IMG/VR virus record: IMGVR_UViG_3300028909_000001 | Source: a virus | Lineage: Duplodnaviria; Caudoviricetes | Direction: 5' to 3' (one strand) | Length of the DNA: 64,000 nucleotides | Shown: in pieces, positions 1 to 9,897 of the stretch | How positions within the stretch are numbered: the first letter of the stretch is position 1 | How the letters are laid out: the number at the start of each line of letters is the position of its first letter | Notes under the pieces: generated by a model | Database searches by the model: none | The model's input: the letters and a program-made list of their open reading frames with translations, nothing else | Told to the model about the DNA's origin: nothing | Program-made: the position numbers and the translations under genes

Positions 1-1
1 A

Positions 2-370
2 TCAGAAGAAGCAGCTACTCAATACTCACCTACCCTAACTAATTGTAGAGATTGTAGAGGTTGTAGTAATTGTGATGATTGTAGTTATTGTGATGATTGT
101 AGTAATTGTAGTGGTTGTAGTACTTGTGGAGGTTGTATTAATTGTAGTGTTTGTAGTGTTTGTAGTGATTGTAGTAGTTGTGGAGGTTGTATTAATTGTA
201 GTGTTTGTAGTGTTTGTAGTGATTGTAGTAGTTGTAATGATTGTAGTGATTGTAAAAAATGTTATAAATGTGATAATGGAACACATCTAGAGCCAGTTCA
301 AATTAAGACTGAAGTTATGATAAGACCAGAATTAGACATTAATGATAGAAAGTTGGAACCAGACTTATGA
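2..370 (+). CDS. (Cys-x-x)n repeat protein, family A copy 1 (5'-truncated by window edge)
   Basis: Frame from nt 2 reads SEEAATQYSPTLTNCRDCRGC...IRPELDINDRKLEPDL-TGA; TGA 368-370 overlaps the next ATG (ATGA). Not in the ORF track because the start lies outside the window. Confidence 0.85.
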   Translation, partial: SEEAATQYSPTLTNCRDCRGCSNCDDCSYCDDCSNCSGCSTCGGCINCSVCSVCSDCSSCGGCINCSVCSVCSDCSSCNDCSDCKKCYKCDNGTHLEPVQIKTEVMIRPELDINDRKLEPDL

Positions 371-744
371 CAATAACAAAAAGAAATAATAGATGGTATG
401 ACGAAAATAATAATAGTTGGATAACTGAAGAATCAGCTACTCAATACTCACCTACCTTAACTAATTGTTATGATTGTAGAGGTTGTAGTAATTGTAGTAG
501 TTGTAGAGATTGTTATAATTGTAGTTATTGTAGTAGTTGTAGTAATTGTAGTAGTTGTATTAATTGTAATAATTGTAGTAATTGTAGTAATTGTAATAAT
601 TGTAATAGGTGTAGTGATTGTAGTGATTGTAGTTATTGTAGTCGTTGTAGAGATTGTAGTGATTGGACTGATAATAAGAAATATGAACCGGTAATTAGAC
701 CATTTATAGACTGTACTAACAGACTATTAGAACCAGATTTATGA
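367..744 (+). CDS. (Cys-x-x)n repeat protein, family A copy 2
   Basis: Conserved leader MTITKRNNRWYDENNNSW..SPTLTNC, Cxx array, ends NRLLEPDL; ATGA overlaps at both ends. Confidence 0.9.
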   Translation: MTITKRNNRWYDENNNSWITEESATQYSPTLTNCYDCRGCSNCSSCRDCYNCSYCSSCSNCSSCINCNNCSNCSNCNNCNRCSDCSDCSYCSRCRDCSDWTDNKKYEPVIRPFIDCTNRLLEPDL

Positions 745-1238
745 ATAACAACCTTAAAATAGTAGAACAAAACATATTATTAGCAGACGCCCAAGTAGTT
801 GCTCATTGCTGTAATAATATGAACAAAATGGGTAGTGGGGTAGCCAGAGCCCTAAGATGTAGATTTCCGGAAGTATATGCAACTGATACCAAGTCTTATA
901 TTAACTTTGGTTCAGCTATGTTGGGTAAATGTGTGTTAGTTCCTATCACTACTCTACCTAATCAGACCAAGCTACTATACGTTGCCAATCTATATGGTCA
1001 ATTAGGTTATGGTACAATGCATCTTAGATATGTGCATTATGAAGGATTTTACTTAGCTTTAGAGTCATTAATAAAGCAAATGAGTGAGCAGAATATGACT
1101 AGACTGGCTTTACCTTATAAGATAGGTGCGGATAGGGCTGGCGGTAATTGGAATATTATTGAAACTATGGTTAAGGAGGTTATTAAAGGAAGTAACATTG
1201 AAGTTACTCTATATAAACTTCCTAAAAAGTTAATGTAG
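741..1238 (+). CDS. Macrodomain (ADP-ribose binding/hydrolase) protein
   Basis: VVAHCCNNMNKMGSGVARALRCRFP matches the macrodomain N-x-x-x-x-x-G-x-G-V-A loop; LYVANLYGQ and LALPYKIGADRAGGNW match the phage macrodomain C-terminal motifs. Confidence 0.85.
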   Translation: MNNNLKIVEQNILLADAQVVAHCCNNMNKMGSGVARALRCRFPEVYATDTKSYINFGSAMLGKCVLVPITTLPNQTKLLYVANLYGQLGYGTMHLRYVHYEGFYLALESLIKQMSEQNMTRLALPYKIGADRAGGNWNIIETMVKEVIKGSNIEVTLYKLPKKLM

Positions 1239-1240
1239 TT

Positions 1241-1474
1241 ATGACTCTTTATATCATTCTAAGACATATCAGATCTCCATCAACTAACGCTATTATAGAC
1301 GTCCTATATCAAGCGTTTCAAAATAAGGAGGCAGCCCTGGAATATATCAAATTTTTAACAGATAATAGTACTGTAGTAGGTGAATTTGAATTGAAGGAGT
1401 TTGTATCGGTTGAGAAAGATGAGATAACAATTAGAAGTGAGGGTGGGGAAAGAAGATTAGAACCAGATTTATGA
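1241..1474 (+). CDS. Small hypothetical protein, family B, with shared C-terminal tag
   Basis: 77 aa; MTLYII..KEAA..GEFELKEF..IRSEGGERRLEPDL; ATGA overlap with the next Cys gene. Confidence 0.8.
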   Translation: MTLYIILRHIRSPSTNAIIDVLYQAFQNKEAALEYIKFLTDNSTVVGEFELKEFVSVEKDEITIRSEGGERRLEPDL

Positions 1475-1884
1475 CAATAACTAAAAGAGATACTAGATGG
1501 TATGACGAAAACTATAATAGCTGGGATACTAAAGAATCAGCTACTTTACACTCACCTACCCTAACTGATTGTAGATGGTGTAGAGGTTGTAGTGATTGTA
1601 GAAGGTGTAGTAATTGTAGATATTGTAGTGATTGTAATGCTTGTAGTGGTTGTAATGGTTGTAGAGATTGTTATAATTGTAGTAATTGTATTGATTGTAG
1701 AGATTGTAATGGTTGTAGTGATTGTAGTAGTTGTAGAGATTGTATTTATTGTAGTAGTTGTAGTAATATTTCTTCAGAAAATGATAAATCGTGGTTTAAG
1801 TCCATGTATTATGGAGATGAAGTTAATAAGGAAATAAGACCAGAATTAGACATTAATAATAGAAAGCTAGACCTAGATTTATGA
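1471..1884 (+). CDS. (Cys-x-x)n repeat protein, family A copy 3
   Basis: Same leader and Cxx array; ends IRPELDINNRKLDLDL. Confidence 0.9.
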   Translation: MTITKRDTRWYDENYNSWDTKESATLHSPTLTDCRWCRGCSDCRRCSNCRYCSDCNACSGCNGCRDCYNCSNCIDCRDCNGCSDCSSCRDCIYCSSCSNISSENDKSWFKSMYYGDEVNKEIRPELDINNRKLDLDL

Positions 1885-2207
1885 TTGTATATGCTATTAA
1901 AATATTGAAAGTTAAATATAGTAGAAATACCCTACCTAATAAGTTTGTTAGAGTAGTTATTAAGTATATCGAATTTTATGATAGGGAAGGTTACTGTGAT
2001 GATGAAGAACAGACTAGTATTGAACCTGTAGATTTATACCAAGCCTCTTTGTATCTTAGTAAAGAAGCTGTGGAACAAGAAATTAAAAGGGTAAGGATGA
2101 TAAAAGAAGCGTACAAATACGAAATAGTTGAGATAGAATTAGCTGAGTTAAGTAAGCCTGAAATAAGAATAGAGAACCAGTACAGAAGATTAGATCTAGA
2201 ATTATAA
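1881..2207 (+). CDS. Small hypothetical protein, family B, with shared C-terminal tag
   Basis: 108 aa; MIVYAI..KEAV..IVEIELAEL..IRIENQYRRLDLEL. Confidence 0.8.
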   Translation: MIVYAIKILKVKYSRNTLPNKFVRVVIKYIEFYDREGYCDDEEQTSIEPVDLYQASLYLSKEAVEQEIKRVRMIKEAYKYEIVEIELAELSKPEIRIENQYRRLDLEL

Positions 2208-2212
2208 ACAAT

Positions 2213-2653
2213 ATGCCTAAAGCCACAAATATAAATTGTCATGCCGCCAAAGATATCAATAAACTACCAGATAACACAGTATTGATATCAATAAATGAAG
2301 AATATGAGCCACTTTATCCTTTAAAGTTGGATAGAGAGTCAGAAAATGTGTTAACTTTAAGATTTACTGATATAACTGCACCTTTAACTCATGAAGGCGA
2401 AATGTATCATCCTATTAGTGCTGAAGATGCTTTTAAAATATTAAAGTTCATTGATAAGCATTTAACCAAAGATTTCATAGTTCATTGTGCAGCTGGGGTA
2501 TCTAGAAGTTCAGCTATTTGTCTCTATCTACATATTATGCATTCATATGTGTTAAAAGACAATTTTTGGCTTTCTTCTTCACCTAATTGCTATGTACTTG
2601 GTATGTTAATGCGGCGTAAGGTTGAGCAGGAATCTATGTTAGACGAGATTTAG
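2213..2653 (+). CDS. Cys-dependent (PTP/dual-specificity-like) phosphatase
   Basis: P-loop IVHCAAGVSRSSAI (HCx5R); upstream LISI and LRFTDI motifs typical of small phage PTP-like proteins. Confidence 0.88.
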   Translation: MPKATNINCHAAKDINKLPDNTVLISINEEYEPLYPLKLDRESENVLTLRFTDITAPLTHEGEMYHPISAEDAFKILKFIDKHLTKDFIVHCAAGVSRSSAICLYLHIMHSYVLKDNFWLSSSPNCYVLGMLMRRKVEQESMLDEI

Positions 2654-2654
2654 T

Positions 2655-2900
2655 ATGTCAGATCCAAATCCTCGTATCTTTCCTACTCGATTTCGGCTTT
2701 TGAGTAATATGGAAGTCATAATAACTAAAGAAATAGATGTACAGTGGTGGGGTGATCTACATTATTTATTCGATGTAATTATAGAAGATAATAATAACTA
2801 CTTTTTAGTATATAATAAAGTAGGAGAGACACAGGTTAAAGCTATTATAAAAAGGAGAGAACTTAAACAGTATAATGGTGAATACTATGAAAATAACTAA
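2655..2900 (+). CDS. Hypothetical protein
   Basis: 81-aa ORF tightly packed between neighbours; no recognised motif. Confidence 0.65.
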   Translation: MSDPNPRIFPTRFRLLSNMEVIITKEIDVQWWGDLHYLFDVIIEDNNNYFLVYNKVGETQVKAIIKRRELKQYNGEYYENN

Positions 2901-3219
2901 AAGAGATGATAGATGGTATGACGAAAACGATAATAGTTGGTCTACAGAAGAATCAGCTACTCAATTCTCACCTACTCTAACTAATTGTATTAGTTGTAGA
3001 GATTGTAGATGGTGTAATGATTGTAGAGATTGTAGAGATTGTTATAATTGTAGTAATTGTAGTAATTGTAGTAATTGTAGTAGTTGTACTTATTGTAGAT
3101 GGTGTAATGATTGTAGTAACTGTATTGATTGTAGTGATTGGACTGATAATAAGAAGTATGAACCAGTAACTAGACCGTTTATAGATTGTAGAGATAGACT
3201 ATTAGAACCAGATTTATGA
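2887..3219 (+). CDS. (Cys-x-x)n repeat protein, family A copy 4
   Basis: Start moved from 2875 to ATG 2887 to match the paralogue leader (MKITKRDDRWYDEN); ends DRLLEPDL. Confidence 0.88.
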   Translation: MKITKRDDRWYDENDNSWSTEESATQFSPTLTNCISCRDCRWCNDCRDCRDCYNCSNCSNCSNCSSCTYCRWCNDCSNCIDCSDWTDNKKYEPVTRPFIDCRDRLLEPDL

Positions 3220-3614
3220 AAATAACAAAAATAGCTAATAGATGGTATGACGAAAACAATAATAGCTGGGATACTGAAGAAGCAGCTACTTTATATTCAC
3301 CTACCCTAACTAATTGTTATAATTGTAGTAATTGTAGTAATTGTAGTGTTTGTAGTGATTGTAGTAATTGGTGTAGTAATTGTAATGATTGTGATAGTTG
3401 TAGAGATTGTATTAATTGTAATAATTGTGGTAGTTGTAGTAGTTGTAGTAATTGTAGGAGTTGTTGTAGGTGTAGTGATTGTGATAATTGTAAGTTTATT
3501 GCTTCTTTATTTGATAGAGTTGAAGTTGATGCAAGTTTAATTGAAAGCTGCAAAGAAAATTTAGTTAGAGAAGAATTTGACTTAAACAATAGAAAACTGG
3601 AAATAGAACTATGA
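3216..3614 (+). CDS. (Cys-x-x)n repeat protein, family A copy 5
   Basis: Leader plus Cxx array; ends VREEFDLNNRKLEIEL. Confidence 0.9.
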   Translation: MKITKIANRWYDENNNSWDTEEAATLYSPTLTNCYNCSNCSNCSVCSDCSNWCSNCNDCDSCRDCINCNNCGSCSSCSNCRSCCRCSDCDNCKFIASLFDRVEVDASLIESCKENLVREEFDLNNRKLEIEL

Positions 3615-3883
3615 AGACACTATACGAATTTGAAGAACAACAAAAAGAACTTATAGCTGCTTGTGAGAGAGAAGCTAAAGCTAAATTAGAAGGCAAAAAT
3701 GTATTTATGGATACTTTTGCGCATCGGTTTGAAGATATAGTTGAAGAAATACAAAGAGATGCTAGGAGAGAAGGGGTTAGAGATTGTATAAGGGATATAC
3801 ATATGTGTAAATCAGTTCAATCTAATCCAGACATTATTTATACCCATGAATTAATAATAGCAAGATTAATTAAACTATTATGA
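3611..3883 (+). CDS. Hypothetical protein (helical)
   Basis: 90-aa ORF coupled by ATGA overlap; no recognised motif. Confidence 0.7.
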   Translation: MKTLYEFEEQQKELIAACEREAKAKLEGKNVFMDTFAHRFEDIVEEIQRDARREGVRDCIRDIHMCKSVQSNPDIIYTHELIIARLIKLL

Positions 3884-3931
3884 ACATATATGAAGTAGTA
3901 GATAAATATGAACTAGCACAATATATTCTAA

Positions 3932-4225
3932 ATGAAAATATACCTAATACAGGTTCTAAAACTAAATGGTTTTCTATATGATAATGCTGATGAAATTCGG
4001 TATTTAGCAGTGAATTCTTATATAGACTATACAACAAGGGAAGTAAAAAATGCTAGAGTATTTGAAGATAGAGAAAAAATTGGAGACGAACTATATGAAA
4101 TTACACTAATGAATAGTTTTAATTTTCTCGTTACTAAAATTCTTGAGTTTGAGCTAGTAGAATTTAAAGGTAATAAGTCAATTAGAAGTGAGGGAGGAGA
4201 GAGAAGATTAGAACTAGACTTATGA
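3932..4225 (+). CDS. Small hypothetical protein, family B, with shared C-terminal tag
   Basis: 97 aa; MKIYLI..REKI..ILEFELVEF..IRSEGGERRLELDL. Confidence 0.8.
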   Translation: MKIYLIQVLKLNGFLYDNADEIRYLAVNSYIDYTTREVKNARVFEDREKIGDELYEITLMNSFNFLVTKILEFELVEFKGNKSIRSEGGERRLELDL

Positions 4226-4701
4226 CAATAACTAAAATAGATAATAGATGGTATGACGAAAACAATAATAGTTGGTCTACAGAAGAACTAGCTACTACTG
4301 ACTCTCCTACCCTAACTAATTGTAGTAGTTGTAGAGATTGTAGATGGTGTAGGAATTGTATTCATTGTAAAGGTTGTATTGGTTGTATTGATTGTTATGA
4401 TTGTAATGATTGTAGTAATTGTAGTAGTTGTAGTGGTTGTAGTAGTTGTATTGATTGTAATCGTTGTAGTGATTGTACTGGCTGTATTGATTGTAGTTAT
4501 TGTAGTTATTGTAATAATTGTAGTGAGTGTAGTAACTGTAAAAACTGTTATAAATGTAATACCTTTTCTTTTTGTAGAAACTGTGCTTTTGGTTTTAAGA
4601 AAAGCTATTATAAACCTATGAAGTATAAACGTAGAGCTAAGAAGAGTAAAATTAGACAGGAATATGACATTAATGATAGAAGATTGGAGATTGAACTGTG
4701 A
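4222..4701 (+). CDS. (Cys-x-x)n repeat protein, family A copy 6 (longest array)
   Basis: Leader, long Cxx array, basic linker, ends IRQEYDINDRRLEIEL. Confidence 0.9.
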   Translation: MTITKIDNRWYDENNNSWSTEELATTDSPTLTNCSSCRDCRWCRNCIHCKGCIGCIDCYDCNDCSNCSSCSGCSSCIDCNRCSDCTGCIDCSYCSYCNNCSECSNCKNCYKCNTFSFCRNCAFGFKKSYYKPMKYKRRAKKSKIRQEYDINDRRLEIEL

Positions 4702-4943
4702 TAGCAAACCATATAATATTAACCAGCTGTTACTTAGTAGTAGGGATACTTATAGCTTTAAGAACTGTTATTGAATATACTGACATCCATTACTATCCTA
4801 AGAAGTGTAAGTTAATATTATTTATCCTAGTAATTGCCATATATGCTGTAATAGATGTAACAATTTGGCCTTTATATGCAATTTTAGGTTTGATATCAGG
4901 AATAAGAAGATTAACCAAAGAATTTTTTAAGAATAACAACTAG
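4698..4943 (+). CDS. Small membrane protein (about 2 TM segments)
   Basis: GTG start overlapping the TGA stop; two long hydrophobic stretches and a basic C-terminus. Confidence 0.7.
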   Translation: MIANHIILTSCYLVVGILIALRTVIEYTDIHYYPKKCKLILFILVIAIYAVIDVTIWPLYAILGLISGIRRLTKEFFKNNN

Positions 4944-4968
4944 ACAAACAAACAAATTAACGTATAAT
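4941..4968 (+). promoter_or_regulatory. Sigma70-like promoter, probably giving a leaderless transcript
   Basis: TAGACA (4941-4946), 16 nt spacer, TATAAT (4963-4968); ATG 4975 lies 6 nt after the -10 box. Confidence 0.6.
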
Positions 4969-4974
4969 AAACAT

Positions 4975-5607
4975 ATGAAATTAACATCAATAACATCAAT
5001 AATGGCAGTAATTAGTCTATGCACTATTTCTGCTTTCGGTCAAACTAATGTCACTCAAGTCCCAAACTTGATGGCCAACATTCCTGTCTCAACAGCTGTG
5101 CAGGCTATCTATCAGGACATTGCAAATTCTGGTATTATGCAGGCAACTAATTGGGGAGTTAGTCCTTATGGTACTTATGCACCTAAGTCAGCTAACAAAT
5201 ATGGTGGTGGTGTATTGGCAGTATATAATGTCCCAACACTTACCGGGTCTTTAGGAGCAGTTGGTGCAGTGTTAGGGGCAGATTGGTTGGGGTCCTGGTC
5301 TTTGGTCAGTGGTTCAGTAACTCTTTCAACACCTACGCATCCATTAGCATCAACATCACTATTAAACTGGCTTCCTACCGGTATTCGTAACATTGAAGCT
5401 GATCCTATTGCTATTGCTGGTATCGGAACACCCTTATCTGGGTCATCTGGGGCAGCTGAGTTGTGGGATATAGGATACAACGTTGATATTTATAATACTG
5501 CTACTAGTAAAGTCGGCGCTGGGTTTACTTGGGGTGAATGGATCAATGCCGGAACTGAGTCTGGACATAGATATCACTTATTCGTTAGTTGGAAATACAA
5601 CTTCTAA
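4975..5607 (+). CDS. Secreted, probable outer-membrane beta-barrel protein
   Basis: Sec-type signal peptide MKLTSITSIMAVISLCTISAFG|Q; amphipathic Gly/aromatic strands; C-terminus YHLFVSWKYNF fits the BAM beta-signal (terminal Phe, aromatic at -3). Confidence 0.65.
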   Translation: MKLTSITSIMAVISLCTISAFGQTNVTQVPNLMANIPVSTAVQAIYQDIANSGIMQATNWGVSPYGTYAPKSANKYGGGVLAVYNVPTLTGSLGAVGAVLGADWLGSWSLVSGSVTLSTPTHPLASTSLLNWLPTGIRNIEADPIAIAGIGTPLSGSSGAAELWDIGYNVDIYNTATSKVGAGFTWGEWINAGTESGHRYHLFVSWKYNF

Positions 5608-5637
5608 TTTAGTTAGAGTAGTTTATACTACTACACT

Positions 5638-5961
5638 ATGAAACTAACAAAAAGAAATGATAGATGGTATGACGAAAACAATAATAGTTGGATAACAGAA
5701 CAACTAGCTACTCTACACTCACCTAATCTAACTAATTGTAACTGGTGTAGTGATTGTAGTAATTGTAATAATTGTAATAGTTGTAGTGATTGTAGTGATT
5801 GTAGAGATTGTTATATGTGTGTTAATTGTAGGAGTTGTAATCATCTTGCAAATAAGAAAAACTATAAACCACAACCTATTAAATCTAAGAAAAAGAAGAA
5901 AATTACTAAAATTAGACAAGAATACAATATTAACGATAGAAGATTGGAACTAGAATTATGA
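5638..5961 (+). CDS. (Cys-x-x)n repeat protein, family A copy 7 (shortest array)
   Basis: Leader plus Cxx array; ends IRQEYNINDRRLELEL. Confidence 0.9.
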   Translation: MKLTKRNDRWYDENNNSWITEQLATLHSPNLTNCNWCSDCSNCNNCNSCSDCSDCRDCYMCVNCRSCNHLANKKNYKPQPIKSKKKKKITKIRQEYNINDRRLELEL

Positions 5962-6656
5962 AAATAATAGCAGATGGTGATAGTTGGAACAGCTACCCAC
6001 TTCCTTTCTCTGGTGGTGGGTTGGCTGATCATTTAGCTGTTGTGTTAGATATTGATATTGAAAACTATGCCCATCCCGGTGATAGTACTGAAGAAACAAT
6101 GGGCTTAAAGAAGAGATTAAAGTTGGAACAATATCTACCAAACAGTGATATCTTATTATTCTCAGGTGGTGGTGATGATTTTGTGGGTGATCAGCTTCCT
6201 ATATTTCTAAATGATAATAAGGATGGAAATATTAATAAAGCCATAGATCTTGATAGACTTGATGCAGCCATGGATCTTGCTATAGCAGATTATGAGGATC
6301 TGTTTCAGTTAAGAGATGAAATAGCTCCTAACTGTCTCATAATTACACATAGCTATGATTTTCCTGTTCCTGAAATGATTGGTAATGGTGTATTGTGGTT
6401 AGGTCCTTGGATTAAACCTGGGATGGATCATTGTGGCTGGACTAATCCTAAAGATGCTGCTGATATAACGAAGCTTATTCTTTTAGAATTTGAAAGAAGA
6501 ATAAGTTTGCTCAGTCTACCTAATCATCTTCATATTAATTTTCAAGGAACATTAACTACTTCTGACTGGGGTAATGAAATACATCCTAATAGTAGTGGTT
6601 GGAAGAAGTTAGCTAATCAAATTAAATTGAAATTAGTCCATTATTTAAATAAATAA
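5958..6656 (+). CDS. SGNH/GDSL-type hydrolase
   Basis: Block I IIADGDSW, block II AHPG, block III SGGGDDF, block V NEIHP. Confidence 0.85.
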   Translation: MKIIADGDSWNSYPLPFSGGGLADHLAVVLDIDIENYAHPGDSTEETMGLKKRLKLEQYLPNSDILLFSGGGDDFVGDQLPIFLNDNKDGNINKAIDLDRLDAAMDLAIADYEDLFQLRDEIAPNCLIITHSYDFPVPEMIGNGVLWLGPWIKPGMDHCGWTNPKDAADITKLILLEFERRISLLSLPNHLHINFQGTLTTSDWGNEIHPNSSGWKKLANQIKLKLVHYLNK

Positions 6657-6669
6657 TATCAATCTTAAC

Positions 6670-6697
6670 ATAGCCTCCTACAAAATTAGGAGGCTAT
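6670..6697 (+). terminator. Hairpin, probable intrinsic terminator or processing stem
   Basis: Perfect 11-bp stem ATAGCCTCCTA / TAGGAGGCTAT with a 6-nt loop, in the intergenic gap; weak U-tract. Confidence 0.6.
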
Positions 6698-6717
6698 TAT
6701 CATTTACAAACAGCACT

Positions 6718-7131
6718 ATGAAACTAAGAAAACGAAATAATAGATGGTATGACGAAAATAATAATAGTTGGATAACTGAAGAATCAGCTACTCAATACTC
6801 ACCTACCTTAACTAATTGTTATGATTGTAGAGGTTGTAGTAATTGTAGTAGTTGTAGAGATTGTTATAATTGTAGTTATTGTAGTAGTTGTAGTAATTGT
6901 AGTAGTTGTATTAATTGTTATAATTGTAGTGATTGTAGTAATTGTAGAAATTGTATTAGTTGTAGTCGTTGTAGTGGTTGTAGTATTTGTAAAGGTTGCA
7001 AACAGTCAATAGAATTAGACTTTAAGAAAAACTATAAACCACAGCCTATTAAATCTAAGAAAAAGAATAAAATTGCTAAAATTAGACAGGAATACAATAT
7101 TAATGATAGAAGATTGGAGATTGAACTATGA
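6718..7131 (+). CDS. (Cys-x-x)n repeat protein, family A copy 8 (mosaic of copies 2 and 9)
   Basis: 6734-6918 is identical to 383-567; 6987-7111 is identical to 7540-7664; ends RRLEIEL. Confidence 0.9.
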   Translation: MKLRKRNNRWYDENNNSWITEESATQYSPTLTNCYDCRGCSNCSSCRDCYNCSYCSSCSNCSSCINCYNCSDCSNCRNCISCSRCSGCSICKGCKQSIELDFKKNYKPQPIKSKKKNKIAKIRQEYNINDRRLEIEL

Positions 7132-7310
7132 TAATAAACAATAAAAATACAATCGATGATACTTATATATTGGTTGATAAGATAAATGGAACATTAAATT
7201 TTGAAGACCTTACCATAGTTGATTTAAGTGATGATGAAGTTAGAATACTTAATTACGCTTATGCTTTAAATGGTAGTTCTTTACGTTATATTTCAGTAAC
7301 ACAATCATGA
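7128..7310 (+). CDS. Small hypothetical protein
   Basis: 60 aa; ATGA overlaps on both sides. Confidence 0.65.
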   Translation: MIINNKNTIDDTYILVDKINGTLNFEDLTIVDLSDDEVRILNYAYALNGSSLRYISVTQS

Positions 7311-7684
7311 AACTAACAAAAAGAGCTGATAGATGGTATGACGAAAACGGTAATAGTTGGATAACTGAAGAACTAGCTACTACATATTCACCTACCTTAA
7401 CTAATTGTTATAATTGTAGAGATTGTAGTAGTTGTAGTAATTGTAGTAGTTGTATTAATTGTAGTTATTGTAGTGATTGTATTAATTGTAATAGTTGTAG
7501 AAGTTGTAGTCGTTGTAGTGCTTGTTATAATTGTATAGGTTGTAAAGGTTGCAAACAGTCAATAGAATTAGACTTTAAGAAAAACTATAAACCACAGCCT
7601 ATTAAATCTAAGAAAAAGAATAAAATTGCTAAAATTAGACAGGAATACAATATTAATGATAGAAAGCTAGAATTAGAATTATGA
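7307..7684 (+). CDS. (Cys-x-x)n repeat protein, family A copy 9
   Basis: Leader plus Cxx array; ends IRQEYNINDRKLELEL. Confidence 0.9.
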   Translation: MKLTKRADRWYDENGNSWITEELATTYSPTLTNCYNCRDCSSCSNCSSCINCSYCSDCINCNSCRSCSRCSACYNCIGCKGCKQSIELDFKKNYKPQPIKSKKKNKIAKIRQEYNINDRKLELEL

Positions 7685-7795
7685 AACTTCACATATTATA
7701 TAATATAGCAACAATGGCAGATATTAAGTTGACTAAGAATGAAGCTAGACCACTTAATTATAGCCCTCCCAGATATGTTCTGTTTTAATCTACCT

Positions 7796-7826
7796 AAGGT
7801 GATAGCTGCAAAGCACACCTTTTTTT
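7796..7826 (+). terminator. Probable intrinsic terminator ending the accessory array
   Basis: AAGGTG / CACCTT outer stem, inner GCT-GCAA-AGC (GNRA loop), T-run 7820-7826. Confidence 0.5.
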
Positions 7827-7880
7827 AGCTATCAGTAAGTTTGCCTTGAATATAGATTAACTTGATTGTATTATATAGTT

Positions 7881-8432
7881 ATGTCAGCTATTATCTCATT
7901 GTGTGAAAGGAATGGTGTTATACCAGGCTTGATTACAGAGAATATAAGCTCAATTAGTTGGAAAGCTGTAGATGATGTTACTACTCCATATAGTTCTTAT
8001 AATGCTGTCCTCAATCTAGGCAATAATAGCTATACTGTATATAATTATTTTAAATTTACTGGAGTATTTACAAGTATAGGAAATGTATCAGTTACTCATT
8101 TAACCGGTACCCTCCCTTCCGGAGTGAAATTAATGTCGAATCCAACTATAACTCAAACTAGTAATAGACCACTTTATATTACACCTACTACAGCAACTAC
8201 CTCCATCACCTCCAATGATTTAAGTAGTGTAGGTAGTTCAGTTAATCTGTTAATAGGTCCTGCTCCTAATAATGTAGATGGTGCTGGAGCTGATGGTAAG
8301 TCTAATGCAGCTGGTAATTCAGGAACTCCATTATATAGCACATATTTTATAACTCAATTACAAGTAGCCATCAATGCCAATGCTGGAGATTTAAACAATG
8401 TAATACTCCAGGTAAGTTATAATGAAGTTTAA
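7881..8432 (+). CDS. Probable virion structural protein (beta-rich, S/T/N-rich)
   Basis: ATG 7881 preferred over TTG 7866; NSYTVYNYFKFTG and YFITQLQV strands; sits at the head of the fibre cluster. Confidence 0.6.
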   Translation: MSAIISLCERNGVIPGLITENISSISWKAVDDVTTPYSSYNAVLNLGNNSYTVYNYFKFTGVFTSIGNVSVTHLTGTLPSGVKLMSNPTITQTSNRPLYITPTTATTSITSNDLSSVGSSVNLLIGPAPNNVDGAGADGKSNAAGNSGTPLYSTYFITQLQVAINANAGDLNNVILQVSYNEV

Positions 8433-8799: not shown

Positions 8800-9897
8800 A
8801 TGGCTTTTACTTTTGATCTTCACAAGAACCTGGTTAGTACTTCAGTATTAGGTGCCCCTAGTCCAGCCCTATCCGGAACATCTTTAACTCTAGCTAGTGG
8901 TGGTGGAGCCTTATTTCCTAGCCCGCCATTTAATGTAGTAGTATATCCTACAGGTATTTTCCCAACCTTATTAAACTCGGAAATCTTTAGAGTTACTGCT
9001 GTTAGTGGGGATACATTTACAGCAATAACTAGAGCACAGGAAGGAACTAGTCCAAGGTCTATATTAGTAGGGGATATAATTAGTTTAGTAGTTACAGCAA
9101 AAACACTTACTGATATTGAATCTGCTATCAATACATTAGCAGCTACTACTTCTACTTTTGATGCCTCTGCTATTATATCCGGAACATTGCCTACGCTAAG
9201 AATGCCAGCCTTGACCGGAGATATAACAACTTCAGTAGGATCAGTATTAACTACCTTAGCTACAGTAAACTCTAATGTAGGTATTTTTGGTGATTTACAA
9301 CACATTCCAGTAATTACAGTTAATGCTAAAGGTTTGATTACTGCAGTTTCTACTCAAGCGGTATCAGGAGCTTCCTTCTTTCCAGACATAACCGATGCTG
9401 GAGGTATTGTTAGTGGTACAAGTTTAAATTACGTTAATTATATATATAATAACAGTAGTTTAAATATGACCAGGGATTTATATGGTAATTATACATTAGG
9501 GGTTACTGGAGTTAGGTTTAAAGAGAATATAGGGTGGCAATTATATCATATACCTACAACTTCCTGGTATACATTAATGAATTACGGCTCAACCCCCCAA
9601 CCAGCTTTTAATAATAACTTATTTAATAATAACTTCTCTAATGTGAGATTTATAGACAATCTAGGTTTTCAATTCTACAATACTTCTACTACTAAATGGC
9701 ATACGCTTCTTTGTATAAGTAATCCAGCCGAACTAGCTTTTGATGATGGAACCACAACTACAGGTTCAGGTAGTAACTTTAGATTTGATTTGGTAAAAGG
9801 TATGCAATATCATAATAGTACAACCAATCTATGGCATACCCTAACTACAGGCAATACCTCCTTACCCACACCTACATTAGATGCAGGTAATGTATAA
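8800..9897 (+). CDS. Tail-fibre-like protein
   Basis: N-terminal ITRAQEGTSPRS fibre-base motif, GDLQHIPVITVNAKGLITAVS fibre repeat, three C-terminal GxQ..N..T..WxTL modules. Confidence 0.7.
   Translation: MAFTFDLHKNLVSTSVLGAPSPALSGTSLTLASGGGALFPSPPFNVVVYPTGIFPTLLNSEIFRVTAVSGDTFTAITRAQEGTSPRSILVGDIISLVVTAKTLTDIESAINTLAATTSTFDASAIISGTLPTLRMPALTGDITTSVGSVLTTLATVNSNVGIFGDLQHIPVITVNAKGLITAVSTQAVSGASFFPDITDAGGIVSGTSLNYVNYIYNNSSLNMTRDLYGNYTLGVTGVRFKENIGWQLYHIPTTSWYTLMNYGSTPQPAFNNNLFNNNFSNVRFIDNLGFQFYNTSTTKWHTLLCISNPAELAFDDGTTTTGSGSNFRFDLVKGMQYHNSTTNLWHTLTTGNTSLPTPTLDAGNV

Follow-up and report, generated by a model that had tools for sequence, protein, structure and literature searches.

What use does a phage have for a row of nine genes that each encode a ladder of regularly spaced cysteines? 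The question is raised by the first part of a 64,000-nucleotide stretch of viral DNA (the window), which corresponds to the minus strand of positions 42900-106899 of the 127,352-bp IMG/VR virus record IMGVR_UViG_3300028909_000001. The first-pass annotation had described there a nine-copy family of proteins with a constant leader of about 33 residues (here called the head), a (Cys-x-x)n array of variable length, a tail and a shared C-terminal tag. All nine open reading frames (ORFs) were found where reported, on the plus strand and within positions 2-7684, and this architecture was confirmed in the window copies. The record as a whole holds 15 family members in its 127 kb, on one strand only. 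Near-identical strains of this phage differ mainly in these repeats. No characterised family explains the cluster, which is a repeat-protein multigene family within an uncharacterised phage family already clustered by PHROGs; the new elements are a proposed equivalence of array and solenoid, a 15-fold expansion with address-like tails, and a hypervariability driven by gene conversion. The record is 58% complete according to CheckV, and every record-wide negative on genes given below covers that portion.

The source is an uncultured peat jumbo phage, a size class that follows from the proteins of its relatives, which lie on contigs of up to 218 kb. At least 14 peat metagenome runs contain DNA of the window, with 0.94-0.95 of the sampled words found, and it is present in four peat metatranscriptome runs at 0.23-0.32 of sampled words, with smaller shares in two further runs. 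A scan of IMG/VR for larger relatives returned nothing but fragments, up to 68 kb.

Architecture and distribution of the Cys-array genes

The 33-aa head follows the consensus M-[TK]-[IL]-x-K-x-x-x-R-W-Y-D-E-N-x-N-S-W-...-S-P-x-L-T-N-C, and in every array behind it Tandem Repeats Finder reports a 9-bp period with the consensus TGT-AGT-[AG]AT. The in-register Cys codons are almost uniform (TGT 282 : TGC 6), and Cys accounts for 33% of the arrays versus 0.9% of the genome's long ORFs. The array had been called strictly periodic. The 9-bp period is indeed found everywhere, but the Cys-x-x spacing is imperfect at a few points, for example in copy 5 (Table 1). The shortest and the longest array of the window are those first named, copies 7 and 6, and the tandem duplication noticed in copy 1 is exact, while absent from the database allele P0009. 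The proteins span 107-171 aa, their arrays hold 12-29 Cys, and behind the array come a further 28-77 residues of conserved tail or domain.

These ORFs are real protein-coding genes. In the Cys frame start, head and tail are all conserved, the indels within arrays are all multiples of 9 nt (9, 27, 54 and 234), and none of 33 copies from three contigs (15 + 10 + 8) is frameshifted or truncated. Other frames across the arrays are also open, with Val/Ile-rich and Thr/Ile-rich translations; they arise as a side effect of the repeat. Positions 206-371, 503-698, 5660-6139, 7316-7451 and 7476-7664, which fall in parts of copies 1, 2, 7 and 9, are matched with 0-1 mismatches by contigs from three peat RNA libraries, and in one RNA library the array at 5638 occurs as a variant allele with unchanged flanks. 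In the DNA runs the assembly of the arrays is fragmented; uncovered bins and inter-paralog joints in Logan are inseparable from repeat assembly effects and were left unused.

Profile matches place the copies in PHROG 15341, a family of unknown function: all eight complete window copies match phrog_15341 (E 7e-9 to 1e-19), over head and array, at profile positions ~4-135 of 276. The first-pass annotation had assigned them to no characterised family, which is right in that the family is uncharacterised, but it had already been clustered. Sixteen family members gave no match in Pfam or NCBIfam, and we found no description of this phage family in the literature. In INPHARED, megablast of window positions 1-8000 and tblastn of the 4222 protein were empty, a result in which the BLAST low-complexity filter may hide arrays; relatives in cultured phages were retrieved only through a non-repetitive C-terminal domain (C-domain).

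A word-indexed protein search returned 32 relatives of two architectures. The close relatives have head, array, tails and tag in common with the window copies. The distant ones carry a head of the form G-Y-W-V-D-x-N-x-N-x-W ... T-L-I-N-C, then the array, then a C-domain of ~75 residues (F-K-x-N-P-Q-R ... G-S-R ... C-G-C-F-x-G-T-L-x-E-F). A profile of the distant type, searched against 1.84 billion cluster representatives, matched 3778, 736 and 79 of them at E <= 1e-3, 1e-10 and 1e-30, respectively, and those at E <= 1e-10 are for the most part viral. Among the matches are arrays as short as 3-5 units, C-domains standing alone, proteins with a different C-terminal domain, and giants with many arrays. 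P0042 (1426 aa) and P0103 (795 aa) are two such giants, AT-rich, in which many Cys-x-x arrays are separated by spacers that look immunoglobulin-like; many of these arrays are preceded by D-E-N-G-N-[VI]-x-C, an echo of Y-D-E-N-x-N-S-W in the phage head. The nearest clusters in the ESM Atlas are unnamed and mainly viral (Uroviricota).

In small phages the gene is single-copy and lies among early, recombination or replication genes. One such relative (L003) adjoins a SNF2 helicase gene, and another (L007) shares a block with genes for DnaA_C, VRR_NUC, ParB and terminase. Multi-copy sets with the tag are confined to the peat jumbo lineage (L008, L010-L015). Typical members of PHROG 15341 have, like the window copies, an aromatic-x-D-x-N-x-N-x-W ... 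TL-x-N-C module directly before (Cys-x-x)n. Whereas those members are single-copy and end in the ~75-aa GSR...CGCF domain, the record has 15 copies in 127 kb, all but one of which have traded that ancestral domain for short tails: it is found in none of the nine window copies and in one further copy of the record (L001:12601-13113). Most record copies moreover end in a lineage-specific peptide that presumably serves for docking, and the arrays are hypervariable between strains. The window cluster is thus an expansion, particular to its lineage, of an uncharacterised family that is widespread in phages.

Hypervariability between near-identical strains

The window was compared with L008, a syntenic contig of 61.5 kb from NCBI assembly GCA_003191745.1, and L011 was used beside both as a third haplotype. 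Thirteen flanking non-Cys genes are 97.4-100% identical in nucleotides between the window and L008, and the corresponding values are 74-95% for the arrays, 86-99% for the heads and 89-100% for the tails. The differences start at the head and end abruptly at the end of the array. In copy 9, where the array is 49 aa long in both strains and 78% identical, nearly every unit differs, and the 132 nt of tail that follow are 100% identical; in copy 3 an array of 74% identity precedes a tail of 99%. Length also varies, with 23 Cys in the window against 49 in L008 at the copy 2 locus, and 21 against 24 at the copy 8 locus (a 27-nt indel). Copies 4 and 5 have a single counterpart in L008 and likewise in L011, a gene that combines the head of copy 4 with the tail of copy 5, and copy number does vary among relatives. 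The suggestion that the many copies provide coverage of variants fits this extreme strain-to-strain variability. L008 also has two small genes more than the window, at 4747-5043 and 6752-7252 (98 and 166 aa), and gene cassettes, besides arrays, therefore come and go in this block.

The variant sequences point to their own origin. At the copy 7 locus, 63 nt of L008 match part of the copy 6 array exactly. Exact tracts of at least 36 nt from non-orthologous paralogs make up 24% of the L008 arrays, compared with 1% in a unit-shuffled null, and 61 of the 65 differences in the heads carry the same-site state of another paralog, where ~18% would be expected. By our own count from the window-L008 alignments, the third position of TGT, which serves as a neutral control within the arrays, changed once in ~80 Cys codons; a raised rate of point mutation is therefore not the cause of the variation. 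The shared tracts show that array diversity arises by gene conversion between paralogs, in a 9-bp register.

A diversity-generating retroelement (DGR) or another dedicated mutator would be a different source. It would account for a variation that is limited to A-rich x codons and leaves the A-free TGT untouched. The record, however, has no match to a reverse transcriptase (RVT_1), fifteen arrays of unequal length vary and the heads vary too, the variant tracts reproduce other paralogs exactly, and adenine mutagenesis alone could not turn an AAY template codon into the AGA (Arg) seen at the first x position (x1). We find such a mutator hardly credible here.

The same data can be read in a second way, in which the arrays are selfish or neutral low-complexity repeats, that is, recombinogenic DNA with ORFs of little or no function. 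In-register recombination would keep TGT and the frame without selection, and the exact duplication in copy 1, the fragmented array assembly in DNA runs and the open alternative frames would suit it. Against it, the plan of head, array and C-domain and the residue preferences at x1 and the second x position (x2) persist in hundreds of phage clusters, at identities as low as 40%, the 33 copies are intact, and heads and tails are under protein-level constraint. Purely neutral repeats are thus very improbable.

Multigene families diversified by conversion include Neisseria pilE/pilS, Borrelia vlsE and the assembly of the lamprey variable lymphocyte receptors (VLRs). In these, as in phage DGR targets and in the present cluster, a constant scaffold bears positions at its surface (a predicted surface in the cluster) whose content is reshuffled out of a set of related cassettes, and close genomes of gene-conversion families and of the window lineage alike differ almost only at the reshuffled positions. 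Unlike pilE/pilS, vlsE and VLR, the cluster has donors that appear to be intact and expressed paralogs, silent cassettes are absent, and the record yielded no reverse transcriptase. If the observation holds, a local variation of 5-26% in genomes that are otherwise 97-100% identical marks either strong conflict or strong instability, and few such phage loci are known besides DGRs and tail-fibre swaps.

The Cys-x-x array and its possible fold

Two alignments were used for AlphaFold2 (AF2), one of the close family (A1) and one of the distant family (A2). With A1 the head is predicted to fold (predicted local distance difference test, pLDDT, 80-89) into a beta-hairpin (residues 4-11), a strand (17-18) and a helix (21-30), and the array, at pLDDT 53-62, shows an isolated beta-bridge at each x1. 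With A2 the head reaches 74-79, the C-domain 80-93 and the array 27-36. The ESMFold/ESM Atlas model of copy 6 has a predicted template modelling (TM) score of 0.34, its neighbours at TM 0.58-0.68 include Beta_helix/DUF3737, and its beta-helix neighbours lie at TM 0.42-0.68. The weak Foldseek rows are mostly beta-solenoids, namely pentapeptide-repeat proteins, the antifreeze protein of Tenebrio and tailspikes.

Over 192 arrays and 2,928 units, x1 favours S/R/I/T/K/N/Y and x2 favours D/N/Y/S/G, that is, strand-type against turn-type residues, a pattern like that of a structural repeat. Across the family the array may have as few as 3 units or as many as 49 Cys (in L008) while both end modules stay intact, and this freedom argues for an element of rod or valency and against an enzyme or a metal site of fixed geometry. 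By our own reading of the sequences the head is hydrophilic and no signal peptide is apparent; the proteins would therefore be cytoplasmic, with metal-thiolate bonds likelier than disulfides.

A further argument comes from the C-domain of the distant relatives. The same domain ends gp25 of Listeria phage LP-HM00113468 (L024:3494-4207), after pentapeptide repeats (Pfam Pentapeptide, E 5.5e-50), and gp34 of Ruminococcus phage phiRM10 (L025:3407-4225), after repeats of the YdcK/bactofilin type (B_solenoid_ydck, E 1.5e-41), and in a joint alignment with gp25 and gp34 the G-C-F, E and Y columns are invariant. Since the domain stands behind true beta-solenoids in these phages, the Cys-x-x array would fill the slot of a solenoid. 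The C-domain itself has no Pfam model and no recognisable fold (best Foldseek E 0.84, best VIA Z 5.4). None of the Pfam solenoid repeat models PF00805, PF18836 and PF00132 matches the array, whose period is 3 residues.

Together, the low-confidence bridges in AF2 and ESMFold, the residues at x1 and x2 and the C-domain behind true solenoids make a Cys-ladder beta-solenoid or a metal binder, the two options first proposed, the reading most consistent with the evidence. With known beta-solenoids (Qnr/MfpA/AlbG, the YdcK/bactofilin type, and the antifreeze protein of Tenebrio molitor, TmAFP, 1EZG/1L1I) the arrays have in common a short period, free copy number, an inward invariant residue (predicted for the arrays) and turn-forming D/N/G. 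They differ in their period of 3 rather than 5, 6 or 12, in having no Pfam repeat match, and in structural matches that are insignificant. TmAFP has a Cys ladder in the core of a 12-residue coil, but it is secreted, disulfide-bonded and has a Thr ice-binding face, while the window proteins show no signal peptide. Sequence matches in the PDB to a SWIM zinc finger (E 0.023), to TmAFP (E 0.024) and to CXXC fingers were rejected as homology, being compositional.

If the solenoid reading is true, a period-3 Cys repeat that replaces solenoids of the pentapeptide and YdcK type would amount to a minimal repeat fold not described before, perhaps built around an unbroken core of metal and thiolate, in hundreds of unannotated phage protein clusters.

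One special form of the solenoid reading is a DNA-mimicking rod directed against restriction or gyrase, in the manner of Qnr, MfpA, AlbG or Ocr. Pentapeptide-repeat proteins are solenoids that dimerise through C-terminal helices and mimic DNA (PMC10886550), they are among the weak Foldseek rows, and the C-domain is common to a phage pentapeptide-repeat protein, gp25, whose gene adjoins a 'host nuclease inhibitor', a methyltransferase and Gam-like genes. The genes of both gp25 and gp34, in cultured temperate phages, lie near Gam-like, nuclease-inhibitor and recombinase genes. The arrays, however, are near neutral rather than polyanionic, with a net charge between -6 and +2 on 34-89 residues, and several tails have a strongly basic character (+7 to +9). 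A rod of period 3 would be far slimmer than B-DNA, and a conserved target such as gyrase needs no hypervariable surfaces. DNA mimicry is accordingly an improbable function.

Alternatively, the metal or the thiols could themselves be the point, as in metallothioneins. The proteins would then sequester, store or detoxify Zn, Cu, Fe or Cd, or act as redox buffers, in a host living in acidic peat, with the copies as dosage and no defined rod. Like metallothioneins, the proteins are small, apparently cytoplasmic and about one third Cys in their arrays, in overlapping CxxC motifs with S/N/D/G/K between the Cys. Their Cys counts favour neither even numbers nor multiples of four (85:77 mod 2; uniform mod 4), as would be the case for bridging-thiolate clusters, fungal (CXX)n proteins automatically annotated as metallothionein are among the Foldseek neighbours (A0A6A6H6J6, E 9e-4), and the A2-based model leaves the array disordered. 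Yet the period is strict but for the few points mentioned, ~9% of the x residues are aromatic (Y, W; 50/576), where metallothioneins have almost none, bulky I and R are common, and no metallothionein Pfam family appears at E <= 1. For a bulk chelator the folded head, the x1/x2 rules, the address-like tails and the docking tag would be superfluous, dosage would leave the equal-length allele differences (as at 7307, with its 78% nucleotide identity) unexplained, and outside this lineage the gene occurs once, in early or recombination blocks. We consider a metallothionein-like role unlikely, although it keeps a modest weight.

The arrays might also be the cores of ribosomally synthesised and post-translationally modified peptides (RiPPs), the head being a leader and the Cys units a substrate for thiazol(in)es, for lanthionines formed from Cys and Ser, or for radical-SAM thioethers, with one maturase for all copies as with prochlorosins. 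The nearest published parallel is found in heterocycloanthracin precursors, in which a conserved leader is followed by strain-variable Cys-Xaa-Xaa repeats, far from the maturases (Haft 2009, PMC2674419). Many copies with a common leader and a hypervariable core, and Ser as the commonest x1 residue, would also suit this reading, and precursors of the heterocycloanthracin/sonorensin type (thiazole/oxazole-modified microcins, or linear azole-containing peptides) vary by indels of whole units, as the copies do. Those precursors, however, have 50-90 aa, a C-terminal core, Gly-rich units and obligatory genes for cyclodehydratase, scaffold and dehydrogenase. The window copies have dissimilar leaders, their head is predicted to fold, and in proteins of 107-171 aa the array is followed by tails and tag, a membrane helix or the 75-aa domain, which leaves no free C-terminal core. 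No YcaO, LanC-like (PF05147) or radical-SAM (PF04055) match was found in the record, and two window copies gave no NCBIfam precursor model at E <= 1, where the presence of such a model in the release is unverified. The sole radical-SAM gene near a single-copy relative lies 8 kb off in L003, beside a PTPS gene, and we take this pair to be deazaguanine genes. Peptide precursors are thus decidedly improbable, and a phage head followed by (Cys-x-x)n need not be annotated as a bacteriocin precursor.

The C-terminal tag, the proposed mechanism and the neighbouring genes

A peptide of the form R-x-L-[DE]-x-[DE]-L stands at the very C-terminus of all nine window copies, where it reads R-[RKL]-L-[ED]-x-[DE]-L-stop. 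The shared tag was thus correctly seen as the end of every copy, but it is not private to them: it terminates 15 ORFs of the record, three of which, all in the window, have no Cys array (Table 1). In 13 of these 15 ORFs, stop and next start overlap as ATGA or GTGA, an arrangement that points to coupled translation across the block. The Leu codons of the tag vary synonymously (TTG, TTA, CTA, CTG), and the peptide itself is therefore under selection. Presumably the tag docks all its carriers onto one partner.

Short peptides that bind a sliding clamp are a possible parallel. Examples are the clamp-binding tails that recognise gp45 of T4 and the hexapeptide QLxLxL for the bacterial beta-clamp, as at the C-terminus of Pol IV. 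Like the tag, clamp-binding peptides are short, stand at the extreme C-terminus and are common to unrelated proteins, and L-x-[LIP]-x-L-COOH after a polar residue resembles QLxLxL. The tag differs in that the polar residue is R instead of Q and the intervening positions are acidic, and the record has no DNA_pol3_beta or gp45 match and thus no clamp gene that was found.

From these elements we tentatively propose a metal-cored rod that acts as adaptor or decoy, a mechanism that we favour over the alternatives while giving it somewhat less than even odds. The folded 33-aa N-terminal module would abut the array and probably cap it, and the (Cys-x1-x2)n units would most likely stack into a thin, rod-like structure of the solenoid type. 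The Cys column is predicted to form the core, held by metal-thiolate bonds in the reducing cytoplasm, so that x1 (S/T/R/K/I/Y) and x2 (D/N/G/S/Y) would form the surface of the rod. A variable linker would follow, which may be acidic, Lys-rich, a membrane helix or a globular domain, and in most copies the C-terminal R-x-L-[DE]-x-[DE]-L would end the protein and dock to the common partner. Head and array would be the conserved working unit. In this lineage they are continually reshuffled among paralogs by gene conversion and by gain or loss of units in the 9-bp register, and near-identical strains therefore display different array surfaces, lengths and copy numbers. The proteins may have an accessory role in the interaction with the host, as adaptors or decoys of variable surface that gather at one hub.

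Several results weigh against this mechanism. The array is poorly modelled with either alignment, and Foldseek against the PDB matches no solved structure (E > 1, TM 0.1-0.2). The lack of a parity or quartet rule in the Cys counts means that discrete Zn(Cys)4 sites or paired disulfides are not required, and the autocorrelation of residues gives no clear super-period from which a coil length would follow; its small bumps for Gly at x2, at lags of 3 and 6 units, are confounded by composition between proteins and carry no claim. The RNA-library contigs agree with transcription without proving it, and translation is a step further off. Finally, as in-register conversion preserves TGT and the frame by itself, the variability could be neutral instability and not the product of diversifying selection.

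A more far-reaching version of the adaptor idea would make the cluster a phage repertoire of binders, built on a thin, metal-stabilised Cys-ladder scaffold and recombined among 15-18 expressed paralogs to track variable host targets, defence proteins for example. As outward-facing x1/x2 residues, rod length and the C-terminal 'address' would all be recombined by in-register conversion, such a repertoire would be a DGR-independent system, VLR-like or resembling antigenic variation. We regard it as speculative and rather unlikely. If the docking reading holds, the 15 natural variants are available for finding the reader of the tail.

Table 1. Cys-array genes of the window, tag-bearing ORFs lacking an array, and three further family members of the record
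Feature	Position	Strand	Product	Remarks
Copy 1	2..370	+	141 aa, 26 Cys	5' end beyond window edge, full gene starts 55 nt upstream; tail type IRPELDINDRKLEPDL; exact 54-bp tandem duplication 125-178/179-232
Copy 2	367..744	+	125 aa, 23 Cys	acidic tail DWTDNKKYEPVIRPFIDCTNRLLEPDL; phrog_15341 E 1.8e-11
Non-Cys tagged ORF	1241..1474	+	77 aa	ends ..IRSEGGERRLEPDL; stop overlaps copy 3 start (ATGA)
Copy 3	1471..1884	+	137 aa, 22 Cys	
Non-Cys tagged ORF	1881..2207	+	108 aa	ends ..YRRLDLEL
Copy 4	2887..3219	+	110 aa, 18 Cys	another in-frame ATG at 2875
Copy 5	3216..3614	+	132 aa, 22 Cys	irregular spacing CSNWCSNC, CCRC; tail KFIASLFD...RKLEIEL
Non-Cys tagged ORF	3932..4225	+	97 aa	ends ..GGERRLELDL; stop overlaps copy 6 start
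Copy 6	4222..4701	+	159 aa, 29 Cys	longest in window; 27 Cys in strict register; Lys/Arg-rich tail; phrog_15341 E 1e-19; protein used for modelling
Copy 7	5638..5961	+	107 aa, 12 Cys	shortest array; Lys-rich tail; RNA-library contigs with 0 mismatches
Copy 8	6718..7131	+	137 aa, 21 Cys	Lys-rich tail
Copy 9	7307..7684	+	125 aa, 17 Cys	
Leaderless copy	L001:156-419	-	88 aa	upstream of window; ends R-N-L-D-P-F-L
Globular-domain copy (P0010)	L001:12601-13113	-		upstream of window; ancestral globular C-domain kept
Membrane-helix copy	L001:19020-19412	-		upstream of window; tail is a hydrophobic membrane-type helix

Two further genes lie in the same block. The gene at 741-1238 (plus strand, 165 aa), between two Cys genes, is 98.4% identical in nucleotides in L008 and matches phrog_335 'phosphatase' (E 9e-33), with a Pfam Macro match below the cut-off (E 0.004); its product is probably an ADP-ribose-processing macro domain. 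The product of the gene at 2213-2653 (plus strand, 146 aa) has an H-C-x-x-G-x-x-R-S motif and matches to DSPc (E 5e-5) and Y_phosphatase (E 2e-3) that are below the cut-off, and it is a candidate Cys-based phosphatase.

A scan of the cluster region gave promoter-like sites at chance level only; a good sigma-70-like site (11/12) lies at 4941-4968, ahead of the gene at 4975-5607. The sole terminator-like hairpin of the first 8.6 kb, at 6670-6697 on the plus strand, has an 11-bp stem followed by a T-rich tail and sits between the gene at 5958-6656 and copy 8. Downstream, the Cys cluster is directly followed by large, co-oriented, unannotated genes that are possibly tail-related. The gene at 8800-9897 (plus strand), with its match to the tail fibre family phrog_8469 (E 3e-12), gives the first structural match after the accessory block.

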